64,000 nucleotides of DNA from Escherichia phage vB_EcoM-UFV11, in the sequence record OP555982.1; one strand, given 5' to 3'. The translations under genes and the position numbers were made by a program. The notes under the pieces are model-generated. The model was given only the letters and a program-made list of their open reading frames with translations, was not told the origin of the DNA and did no database searches. Numbering within the stretch: position 1 is the first letter of the stretch; every line of letters begins with the position of its first letter. This document shows, in pieces, positions 36,164 through 37,178 of this stretch.

Positions 36164-36239
36164 TGGTCGAGGCAGTAGGGATCGAACCTACGACCCAGGA
36201 CTTAGAAGGTCCTTGCTCTTCCTTCTGAGCTATGCCCCG
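36164..36239 (-). tRNA. tRNA-Arg (anticodon UCU)
   Basis: manual cloverleaf: acceptor CGGGGCA/TGCCTCG, T-loop GGTTCGATCC, anticodon loop CUUCUAA, encoded CCA. Confidence 0.8.
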
Positions 36240-36243
36240 TAAT

Positions 36244-36319
36244 TGGGGTGACCGATGGGAGTCGAACCCATGACTACGAGAATCACAATCTCGAGTTCTA
36301 CCAACTGAACTACGGCCAC
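36244..36319 (-). tRNA. tRNA-His (anticodon GUG)
   Basis: acceptor GTGGCCG/CGGTCAC, T-loop GGTTCGACTCC, anticodon loop ATTGTGA, encoded CCA. Confidence 0.7.
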
Positions 36320-36433
36320 ATTAATACCTACTCCAACAATCATGATGTCTTCACACGAAATTAAGAGAAGAGTGATCAGTTCAACCCCTATAATCGCGTC
36401 AAGTAGATATTAATGTGACAGTTGTCACAAATT

Positions 36434-36508
36434 TGGCGGACGTGATAGGATTCGAACCTATAACCAATCGCTTAACAGGCGATCGCTCTGCCATTGAGCT
36501 ACACATCC
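36434..36508 (-). tRNA. tRNA-Asn (anticodon GUU)
   Basis: acceptor GGATGTG/CACGTCC, T-loop GGTTCGAATCC, anticodon loop CTGTTAA, encoded CCA. Confidence 0.75.
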
Positions 36509-36512
36509 AAAT

Positions 36513-36599
36513 TGGTGGGGAGTGATGGAGTCGAACCACCCGAGTCGCAATGACAATGAATTTACAGTCCACACCGCTACCTCTACGGGATAACTCCCC
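36513..36599 (-). tRNA. tRNA-Tyr (anticodon GUA), class II with long variable arm
   Basis: 87 nt; acceptor GGGGAGT/ACTCCCC, anticodon loop CTGTAAA, T-loop GGTTCGACTCC, encoded CCA; anticodon stem has G-U pairs. Confidence 0.6.
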
Positions 36600-36605
36600 T
36601 TAATT

Positions 36606-36680
36606 TGGTGGCCCTGGGTGGAATTGAACCACCATCTGGCGATTATGAGTCGCTTGCTTGAACCTTCCAGCTACAGGGCC
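36606..36680 (-). tRNA. tRNA with CAU anticodon (Met, or Ile if position 34 is modified)
   Basis: acceptor GGCCCTG/CAGGGCC, anticodon loop CTCATAA, T-loop GGTTCAATTCC, encoded CCA. Confidence 0.7.
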
Positions 36681-36681
36681 T

Positions 36682-36757
36682 TGGTGCTGATTGACGGAAT
36701 CGAACCGCCGACATCCTCATTACAAGTGAGGTGCTCTACCTACTGAGCTAAATCAGC
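36682..36757 (-). tRNA. tRNA-Thr (anticodon UGU)
   Basis: acceptor GCTGATT/AATCAGC, anticodon loop CTTGTAA, T-loop GGTTCGATTCC, encoded CCA. Confidence 0.8.
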
Positions 36758-36762
36758 AAAGC

Positions 36763-36852
36763 TGGCGGAGGCGATAGGATTTGAACCTATGAATCGCCGG
36801 AGCGACTGCCGGTTTTCAAGACCGGTGCATTAAACCACTCTGCCACGCCTCC
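36763..36852 (-). tRNA. tRNA-Ser (anticodon UGA), class II
   Basis: 90 nt; acceptor GGAGGCG/CGCCTCC, anticodon loop CTTGAAA, long variable arm, T-loop GGTTCAAATCC. Confidence 0.8.
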
Positions 36853-36854
36853 AG

Positions 36855-36928
36855 TCTCCATACAAGGATTTGAACCTTGGACCTCCTGATCCCAAATCAG
36901 GCGCTCTACCAAACTGAGCTACACGGAG
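36855..36928 (-). tRNA. tRNA-Pro (anticodon UGG)
   Basis: anticodon loop TTTGGGA, T-loop GGTTCAAATCC; CCA not encoded. Confidence 0.75.
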
Positions 36929-36938
36929 TAAATTAAAT

Positions 36939-37012
36939 TGGAGCGGATAATGAGAATCGAACTCACATCATCAGATTGGAAGTCTGAGGTAATACCATTA
37001 TACGATATCCGC
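36939..37012 (-). tRNA. tRNA-Gly (anticodon UCC)
   Basis: acceptor GCGGATA/TATCCGC, anticodon loop CTTCCAA, T-loop GGTTCGATTCTC, encoded CCA. Confidence 0.8.
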
Positions 37013-37017
37013 AAATT

Positions 37018-37104
37018 TGGTGCGAGAAGTGGGACTCGAACCCACAAGGAAATCATTCCGCAGCATTTTAAGTGCTGTGCCTTTACCAATTTGACCATTC
37101 TCGC
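37018..37104 (-). tRNA. tRNA-Leu (anticodon UAA), class II
   Basis: 87 nt; acceptor GCGAGAA/TTCTCGC, anticodon loop CTTAAAA, long variable arm, T-loop GGTTCGAGTCC. Confidence 0.8.
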
Positions 37105-37105
37105 G

Positions 37106-37178
37106 CTGGGAATAAAGGATTCGAACCTTTGCATCTAGCAGTCAAAGTGCTATGCCTTACCAACTTGGCTAATTCCCA
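37106..37178 (-). tRNA. tRNA-Gln (anticodon UUG)
   Basis: acceptor TGGGAAT/ATTCCCA, anticodon loop CTTTGAC, T-loop GGTTCGAATCC. Confidence 0.75.

Follow-up and report, generated by a model that had tools for sequence, protein, structure and literature searches.

An eleven-gene, segB-free tRNA cluster in Escherichia phage vB_EcoM-UFV11: probable roles in codon supply and in insurance against tRNA-cutting defences, and a candidate structured RNA next to tRNA-His

The window analysed here is a stretch of 64,000 nucleotides (nt) from Escherichia phage vB_EcoM-UFV11 (OP555982.1), and its element of interest is a cluster of tRNA genes at positions 36164-37178. The tRNA regions of the T-even phages have been under study since the 1970s. 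ARAGORN, applied to the whole window, found 11 tRNA genes, all located in this interval and on the minus strand. In the order of transcription they are Gln (UUG), Leu (UAA), Gly (UCC), Pro (UGG), Ser (UGA), Thr (UGU), a tRNA with a CAU anticodon, Tyr (GUA), Asn (GUU), His (GUG) and Arg (UCU). An earlier note on this DNA had obtained the same eleven genes by folding cloverleaves by hand, and their number, positions, strand and anticodons are all confirmed by ARAGORN; the cluster is real and ordinary. The spacing of 1-10 nt given in that note does not hold throughout. The gaps between the genes measure 0-10 nt, with the sole exception of the Asn-His gap (36320-36433), which is 114 nt long.

Covariance models agree with most of these calls. 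Ten of the eleven tRNAs exceed the gathering score of the Rfam tRNA family RF00005, which is 29 bits, with scores of 59-75 bits and E-values of 1e-10 to 1e-14. The assignments of His and Asn, for which the earlier note had named rejection by such a scan as the refuting outcome, pass it (Table 1), but that of Tyr, which it had named as well, does not: the tRNA-Tyr gene remains below the RF00005 threshold, and its best Rfam match is tRNA-Sec with 29.9 bits, where that family has a threshold of 47. With tRNAscan-SE, as used in the identical GenBank record of phage vB_EcoM-UFV09, all eleven genes were called, Tyr included.

Table 1. Features of the tRNA cluster and of the adjoining downstream genes. 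Scores of tRNAs refer to Rfam RF00005; the score of the structured RNA refers to its own covariance model.
Feature	Position	Strand	Score (bits)	Remarks
tRNA-Gln (UUG)	37105..37178	-	67.3	97% identity to T4; no encoded CCA; 0 nt to tRNA-Leu
tRNA-Leu (UAA)	37018..37104	-	59.3	long variable arm; 100% identity to T4
tRNA-Gly (UCC)	36939..37012	-	65.8	100% identity to T4
tRNA-Pro (UGG)	36854..36928	-	66.8	99% identity to T4; no encoded CCA; 1 nt before tRNA-Ser
tRNA-Ser (UGA)	36763..36852	-	63	CCA encoded
tRNA-Thr (UGU)	36682..36757	-	75.4	100% identity to T4
CAU-anticodon tRNA	36606..36680	-	59.9	gene of T2, not the tRNA-Ile of T4
tRNA-Tyr (GUA)	36513..36599	-		called by ARAGORN; phage-type, long variable arm, weak D and anticodon arms
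tRNA-Asn (GUU)	36434..36508	-	74.1	identical to that of T2
Structured RNA in Asn-His gap	36320..36424	-	123.8	covariance-model match
tRNA-His (GUG)	36244..36319	-	65.1	C73, T at position -1
tRNA-Arg (UCU)	36164..36239	-	63.9	T2-type allele
116-aa open reading frame	35795..36145	-		between tRNA-Arg and rnaD; phrog_3355, E 8.6e-54
rnaD-like small RNA gene (T4 species 2 RNA)	35683..35795	-		79% identity to T4 rnaD over 118 columns
rnaC small RNA gene (T4 species 1 RNA)	35538..35676	-		98.6% identity to T4 rnaC over all 139 nt

The cluster is not unique to this phage. The 1.4 kb around it is 100% identical to the Tequatrovirus phages vB_EcoM-UFV09, UFV05, UFV06 and UFV10, and 95-99% identical to several hundred further T4-like phages. 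Since the identical GenBank record of vB_EcoM-UFV09 already lists the same eleven tRNAs, found with tRNAscan-SE, the cluster is already known and deposited, and as a tRNA cluster nothing new is added here. At least 80% of the block formed by Tyr, Asn, the spacer and His is present in 186 phage records, and at least 80% of the 1.4-kb query in 239. A record named 'Pseudomonas phage PsgM02F' is 97.9% identical to the region; its host label may be wrong.

Comparison with T4 shows which parts of the cluster are shared. The T4 record (NC_000866) gives the order Gln, Leu, Gly, Pro, Ser, Thr, Ile, segB, Arg, rnaD, rnaC, which matches the eight T4 tRNAs listed in the earlier note. The window cluster occupies the same genomic position in the same orientation, and its flanks are syntenic with those of T4 on both sides (e.8, rnaC and rnaD on one; trna.2-4, ipI, 57B, 57A and gene 1 on the other). 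The tRNAs for Gln, Leu, Gly, Pro, Ser and Thr share 96-100% identity with their T4 counterparts, and the two small RNA genes are also shared. The differences are that T4 has segB, that it lacks Tyr, Asn, His and the RNA in the Asn-His gap, and that its Ile and Arg alleles are others: against T4 tRNA-Ile the identity of the CAU tRNA is only 63%, and that of tRNA-Arg against its T4 namesake 67%. The tRNA-Ser gene of T4 does not encode CCA whereas that of the window does, the 3′ end reading CGCCTCCG-CCA in the window (36763-36765, minus strand) and CGCCTCCG-TAA in T4. What characterizes the T4 cluster itself, namely segB, the T4 Ile and Arg alleles and a set of eight tRNAs, was not found in the window cluster, and T4 SegB gave no tblastn match in the 64-kb window (E<=0.01).

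The closest correspondence of the differing genes is with T2. In T2/T2L (NC_054931; Brok-Volchanskaya et al. 2008, PMC2330249) segB is absent, the flanking genes are the same, and an open reading frame (ORF) of 351 nt, encoding 116 amino acids (aa), follows tRNA-Arg as it does in the window. The CAU tRNA agrees with that of T2 at 75/75 positions, Arg at 75/76 and Tyr at 87/87, and Asn is identical. T2 differs in that it has an ORF in place of tRNA-Thr and lacks the cassette of structured RNA and tRNA-His, so that Asn is followed by Arg after 4 nt. Clusters of the RB18, ACG-C40, AR1 and vB_EcoM-UFV09 type have the gene order of the window, including the Tyr-Asn-spacer-His-Arg block, but in RB18 a segB-like gene replaces tRNA-Pro, whereas the window has no endonuclease gene. 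The cluster is also interrupted by an endonuclease gene in some other Tequatrovirus records, and in T6 Tyr is followed by segB; neither applies to the window. Judged from these sequence comparisons, the window cluster is a segB-free allele of the T2/RB18 type, common to T2, RB18 and ACG-C40.

The direction of the difference from T4 can be approached through the behavior of SegB. Its preferred cleavage site of 27 bp lies within the tRNA-Asn of T2L, and in crosses of T4 with T2L, homing swaps approximately 1250 bp with the genes for Met(CAU), Tyr, Asn and Arg (PMC2330249). Because T2 matches the window, because segB is absent, and in view of these homing data, the window carries the endonuclease-free allele and the eight-gene cluster of T4 is the invaded one. 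The description of the cluster as an expanded version of that of T4 thus has the direction wrong, as the T4 region has segB where the window has the Tyr-Asn-His block. The textbook T4 cluster of eight tRNAs is the allele bearing a homing endonuclease rather than the baseline, of which the window offers a clean example. The point at which segB-like genes enter these clusters varies: in RB18 the gene replaces Pro (locus 2360-3010), in Mineola it lies between Pro and Gly (locus 307-969), in T6 after Tyr (locus 1757-2422) and in T4 between Ile and Arg (locus 5254-5919). The label 'serine recombinase' given to the T6 gene in its record is a mislabel.

The match between the tRNAs and codon demand was examined with 95 ORFs from the window that do not overlap (18,629 codons, 35% GC) and a reference of 42 annotated Escherichia coli K-12 genes (14,748 codons, 52% GC). 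Compared to the E. coli sample, the codons cognate to the tRNAs with U34 or the CAU anticodon are all used more often: AGA 9.2-fold, ATA 5.3-fold, GGA 3.9-fold, TCA 3.8-fold, ACA 3.2-fold, TTA 2.9-fold, CAA 1.6-fold and CCA 1.4-fold. The median enrichment of these eight codons is 3.54, against 0.79 for the other sense codons (Mann-Whitney p=1e-5), and a difference is also found when they are compared with the other A-ending codons (p=0.01). The tRNAs that T4 lacks behave differently. Because G34 reads C- and U-ending codons alike, the Tyr, Asn and His tRNAs are not specialists for AT-rich codons. Tyrosine is the most enriched amino acid of all (1.78-fold; 4.64% vs 2.60%) and asparagine the third (1.63-fold; 6.16% vs 3.77%). 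The proposal that the repertoire is tuned to AT-rich codons is thus supported for the eight U34 and CAU tRNAs, and the expected correlation between codon usage and the added tRNAs, run here on the window ORFs, is seen at the level of amino acid demand for Tyr and Asn; histidine is depleted. Demand accounts reasonably well for ten of the eleven tRNAs but not for His. Codon demand covers most of the gene set and leaves tRNA-His as the outlier.

The CAU-anticodon tRNA is labelled as Met in the T2 and T6 records. It is 76% identical to ileX of E. coli K-12 and 80% identical to a prophage tRNA-Ile, but only 66% to metT. Its acceptor strands GGCCCTG and CAGGGCC give the pairs C4:G69 and C5:G68, as in ileX, whereas metT has T4:A69 and A5:T68. 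These two pairs, 4:69 and 5:68, are major identity elements for E. coli TilS (PMC11947777). The GGCCC/GGGCC acceptor end is shared with ileX and with the tRNA-Ile (CAU) of lambdoid prophages, and the anticodon arm agrees with that of ileX throughout positions 28-42. The D-arm sequence is unusual, and A27 stands opposite C43, as it does in the prophage copy. Matches were found in 5,424 of 5,426 E. coli genomes, and the 12 listed from across their spread are all annotated as tRNA-Ile. The gene thus looks like a tRNA-Ile2, predicted to depend on lysidine and to read AUA. The suggestion that it could be the AUA-reading isoleucine species if modified gains support from these features, and the lysidine-type identity elements that were looked for are present.

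The tRNA-Tyr gene, weak as it is by covariance model, belongs to a phage type. Besides being fully identical to its T2 counterpart, it agrees with that of T6 at 86/87 positions and with that of T5 at 76/87, with the same variable arm as in T5 and with compensatory changes at two pairs of the anticodon stem. The near-identical tRNA-Tyr of T6 was seen by northern blot and was called relatively unstable (PMC13096335). The predicted minimum-energy folds of the phage Tyr and His tRNAs are not cloverleaves, which is uninformative alone because it is a common limit of such predictions. The anticodon stem of tRNA-Tyr contains two G-U pairs, and some records give relatives of the gene the label 'tRNA-OTHER' or 'tRNA-Pseudo-GTA'. 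The phage-type tRNA-Tyr gave no blastn match on any E. coli chromosome but was matched at 273 E. coli plasmid sites. On plasmid NZ_CP024264 (2421-2971) a tRNA-Tyr of 93% identity lies side by side with tRNA-Asn, tRNA-Thr and tRNA-Ser; this plasmid, the one examined, looks like a phage-plasmid. This type of tRNA-Tyr is common to T4-like, rV5-like and T5-like phages and to E. coli plasmids. Some records named 'Campylobacter phage' carry the phage-type tRNA-Tyr of coliphages of 137-142 kb, such as V5; these host labels may be wrong as well.

Phage tRNA-Tyr has been studied in relation to defence systems that cut tRNA (PMC13096335, PMC11555353, PMC12445682). Septu PtuAB blocks T-even phages through cleavage of tRNA-Tyr in the variable arm; T4, which has no tRNA-Tyr, is sensitive, T6 is intermediate and T2 is resistant, and the tRNA-Tyr of T6 rescues that phage when overexpressed or amplified (PMC13096335). 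In T6 the gene adjoins segB, which amplifies it under selection. Amplification driven by segB is unavailable in the window because segB is absent. The tRNA-Tyr of T5 acts against retron-Eco7. With a library of 245 coliphage tRNAs, rescue from the PtuAB of retron-Eco7 was obtained only via tRNA-Tyr(GUA), and rescue from P2 OLD only via tRNA-Thr(UGU) (PMC12445682). The PARIS nuclease AriB cuts tRNA-Lys(UUU) as well as tRNA-Thr(UGU) and, more weakly, tRNA-Asn(GUU) between positions 40 and 41 beside a UAAU motif, and T4's own tRNA-Thr has been linked to the rescue of T4 by T5 tRNA-Lys alone (PMC12409363). In the stem next to this site, the tRNA-Asn of the window has G39 where the host has U39, which breaks UAAU, and its tRNA-Thr has G40 where E. 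coli thrU has C40. With its Tyr, Thr and Asn genes the cluster holds tRNAs of the same kinds as those by which, according to these studies, phages overcome Septu, retron-Eco7, PARIS and OLD.

The tRNA-His gene shares 79% identity with hisR of E. coli and carries both C73 and a GUG anticodon, but the canonical encoded G-1 opposite C73 is replaced by T. In the literature G-1 is described as the major identity element for HisRS. A T at -1 was found in all five distinct T4-like tRNA-His sequences collected, in Erwinia phage FBB1 and in T5, and its combination with C73 spans four genera of Tevenvirinae and T5 (window site 36319-36320, minus strand); a G stands there in hisR of E. coli and in Arthrobacter phage Mimi. 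Between genera, the T4-like tRNA-His genes show compensatory changes in the anticodon and T stems. According to its record the tRNA-His of T5 starts at T(-1), and it becomes an effective amber suppressor after a change of anticodon; the U-1 tRNA-His of T5 must therefore be processed and charged by some synthetase. No paper on a phage tRNA-His lacking G-1 was found in the literature searched. The absence of G-1, common to T5, conflicts with the main identity rule given in the literature for histidine tRNA. In T4-like phages the RNA encoded upstream has a terminal helix whose last base pair is A:U, the U being U-1 from the tRNA-His precursor. In FBB1 (locus 355-400) the core of that RNA is lost but the helix is kept as an 8-bp hairpin that abuts tRNA-His, again with A:U(-1) as its last pair.

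This upstream RNA fills most of the 114-nt Asn-His gap. The gap folds better than shuffled sequence (z = -3.7), and a portion of about 95 nt is kept in Tequatrovirus, Karamvirus and Jiaodavirus alike, with a core that is tighter than parts of the adjoining tRNA-His. The spacer RNA was found in 355 phage records; among the 45 records listed it is unannotated except in two, which have 'hypothetical protein'. A Vequintavirinae copy occurs in four records, and in phage A73 this lies between tRNA-Gly and tRNA-Gln. The RNAalifold consensus of 11 sequences has a terminal helix of approximately 14 bp that closes a three-way junction, an inner arm and a small 3′ hairpin. The invariant core of the inner arm reads GGGUUGA-CU-AUCA-UCUUCUC--AAU-UCGU-UGAAG, where hyphens mark variable positions. 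Of the cells at the proposed pairs 98.3% are paired, against 41-53% when the partners are slid. Double-sided changes occur at eight pairs, compared with 0-2 after sliding, and for four of five pair measures none of 500 shuffles reached the observed value. The G-U pairs are compatible only with the tRNA-sense strand. A covariance model (R1) found a single copy in the window and none in T2, T4 or T6, an absence that would explain why the spacer RNA was never described. The gap opens with a perfect 7-bp inverted repeat, TGTGACA AC TGTCACA (36414-36429, minus strand), 4 nt after tRNA-Asn and just ahead of the structured RNA; among the aligned sequences it is complete only in those of Tequatrovirus (window, RB18), and Karamvirus keeps the 3′ arm alone.

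Several identities of the spacer were considered and rejected. Rfam 15, which includes ribozymes and tRNA-like RNAs, gave no match over 36320-36433 at E<=1. Homology to T5 RNAIII is not supported, as R1 gave no match with default filters or with filters off and the pairwise identity is at background; alignment to the annotated stable RNAs of T5 is likewise at background level. The same applies to rnaC and rnaD, since R1 found nothing in the T4 locus and the true homologues of these genes lie at 35538-35795. A mimic of a host RNA is not indicated by blastn, which found no match in 5,426 E. coli genomes. In a search of the window for an antisense target of the pyrimidine-rich invariant core, only the spacer element itself matched. 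As for a small ORF, the ATG frame runs into tRNA-His and the opposite strand is closed by stops; a coding role is ruled out because one member of the family has a 4-nt deletion. A scan for promoters of the sigma-70 type and for terminators found none on the tRNA strand in the gap, and over the region as a whole such signals are no more frequent than in shuffled sequence. A CUCUUA motif resembling boxA of antitermination was rejected because Karamvirus reads CUCUCA, so that it is not conserved. Searches of viral, metagenome and genome collections with core patterns returned only close T4-like relatives; 14 hits in bacterial and archaeal genomes were treated as chance because none matched the covariance model.

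The spacer RNA does resemble a class of phage transcripts in kind. T4 rnaC and rnaD and T5 RNAIII, RNAI and others are small stable RNAs of phage tRNA clusters. The spacer RNA, predicted here from sequence, is likewise encoded on the tRNA strand inside a tRNA operon, with a length of around 100 nt and its ends joined by a helix, and is flanked by tRNA processing sites, but it shows no detectable similarity to rnaC, rnaD or the annotated T5 stable RNAs by sequence or covariance model. T5 RNAIII lies directly 5′ of a U-1 tRNA-His as well, and has a 14-bp terminal helix and inner hairpins; the likeness is kept as an analogy of position and architecture only. For rnaC and rnaD the literature speaks of RNAs 'whose biological roles are unknown' (PMC3014915). 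A tentative proposal, which we hold at somewhat less than even odds, is that the spacer belongs to an undescribed RNA family of approximately 95-105 nt that forms a cassette with the U-1 tRNA-His, where either the terminal helix, with its A:U(-1) pair stacked on the acceptor stem, governs the 5′ cut of tRNA-His or the free RNA acts alone. If the helix controls that cut, it would decide whether tRNA-His is a good substrate for HisRS; alternatively, the released RNA could act, for example, as a protein-binding decoy. What is described here of the spacer RNA and of the missing G-1 amounts to small leads from sequence comparison, unrecorded in the literature and databases searched, and not established findings.

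In view of the above, the cluster is best explained as a segB-free Tequatrovirus tRNA operon with two jobs, supply and insurance, and the T4 cluster as a SegB-bearing allele of it rather than the baseline. We estimate the probability of this explanation at about 0.8. By analogy with T4 biology, the eleven tRNAs, the embedded small RNA, rnaD and rnaC are probably co-transcribed from the minus strand into one precursor that holds several genes. Processing of this precursor would fall to host enzymes, with RNase P acting at the 5′ ends, trimming at the 3′ ends, and addition of CCA to Gln and Pro, whose genes do not encode it. In the supply role, the tRNAs Arg (UCU), Ile2 (CAU), Gly (UCC), Ser (UGA), Thr (UGU), Leu (UAA), Gln (UUG) and Pro (UGG) would decode A-ending codons, which are far more common in a phage of 35% GC than in a host of 52% GC, and Tyr and Asn would supply two of the three amino acids with the highest enrichment. 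In the insurance role, Tyr, Thr and Asn would replace classes of tRNA that are destroyed by host defence nucleases, a divergent or extra phage copy keeping translation running. The tRNA-His does not clearly fit either role and arrives as a cassette with the structured RNA.

A number of observations weigh against this explanation. Lysine is the second most enriched amino acid (1.66-fold) yet the cluster has no tRNA-Lys, so demand alone does not predict the gene set. Histidine is used less than in the E. coli sample (0.68-fold, on both strands), which together with the missing G-1 makes a supply role of tRNA-His doubtful. These ratios compare ORFs that stand as proxies for genes with a reference of only 42 genes. 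Septu also cuts the phage tRNA-Tyr (PMC13096335), so that rescue is a matter of dosage and not of resistance, and a single copy may protect only partly, T6 itself being no more than intermediate. Because any diverged tRNA stem would differ, the changes in the stems of Asn and Thr are only suggestive. The mechanistic steps are, for this phage, inferred from T4, T2, T6 and T5. Part of this bears equally on an explanation by supply alone, in which all eleven tRNAs serve only to match the AT-rich demand of the phage to a host pool tuned for GC-richer genes. The strong enrichment of the codons cognate to eight tRNAs and of the Tyr and Asn residues agrees with it, but the depletion of His and the unmatched demand for Lys do not, and in published work defence nucleases are countered by a near-identical tRNA-Tyr and by the Thr and Asn counterparts from T4 and T5. 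T4, moreover, grows normally on laboratory E. coli with eight tRNAs, and the region has been called non-essential (PMC2330249). Supply alone is rather unlikely. The opposite view, that the cluster serves mainly counter-defence and that Tyr, Asn and His, three of the four queuosine-type GUN tRNAs, are kept with Thr as replacements or decoys, is rather unlikely as well. Suitable attackers are described, namely PtuAB (Tyr), AriB (Thr, Asn), OLD (Thr) and nucleases of the colicin E5 type, which act on Tyr, His, Asn and Asp (PMC13096335, PMC11555353, PMC12409363, PMC12445682, PMC1635277), and the spread of phage-type tRNA-Tyr over three groups of phages and E. coli plasmids fits such a role. Sequencing of AriB products shows minor cleavage of tRNA-His (PMC12409363). 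However, no anti-phage system that depends on cutting tRNA-His was found in the literature searched, tRNA-Asp is absent from the cluster, colicin E5 is a bacteriocin and not a phage defence, and the codon data explain most of the set without any defence.

For the His cassette two further explanations can be considered. The tRNA-His may not be an ordinary histidine donor at all: poorly charged without G-1, it could be a passenger of the cassette, a decoy, or a processing handle for the RNA upstream. The consistent T at -1 in the T4-like phages, FBB1 and T5, where hisR and Mimi have G, agrees with this, as do the under-use of His codons and the constant association of the gene with the upstream helix, which FBB1 retains despite the deletion of the RNA core. 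We nevertheless regard it as rather unlikely in view of the clear selection as a tRNA, seen in the compensatory changes of the anticodon and T stems and in the conservation of GUG and C73, and of the amber suppression obtained with the U-1 tRNA-His of T5. If RNase P leaves U-1 in place, part of what HisRS recognizes, the 5′ phosphate, could also remain. The gap itself might be only a promoter, a terminator, a processing spacer or the scar of a mobile element rather than a functional RNA. Homing endonuclease genes do insert at several points in these clusters, and the gap opens with a perfect palindrome. This is very unlikely, though, since the promoter and terminator scan was empty on the tRNA strand, base pairing and double-sided changes far exceed those of the slid controls, the G-U pairs require the tRNA-sense strand, the 4-nt deletion excludes coding, and the core is more conserved than parts of the adjoining tRNA. 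The unannotated structured RNA and the tRNA-His without G-1 are the leads worth a bench test.

Downstream of tRNA-Arg the window continues with the 116-aa ORF and the two small RNA genes listed in Table 1. The vB_EcoM-UFV09 record has no RNA genes over the rnaC/rnaD stretch and instead shows two CDSs of a 'hypothetical protein' (window 35427-35588 and 35594-35722). The product of the 116-aa ORF matched no Pfam family. An ORF of the same size occurs at this position in T2 and RB18 but not in T4, and ORFs of this length also flank the tRNA clusters of Jiaodavirus.

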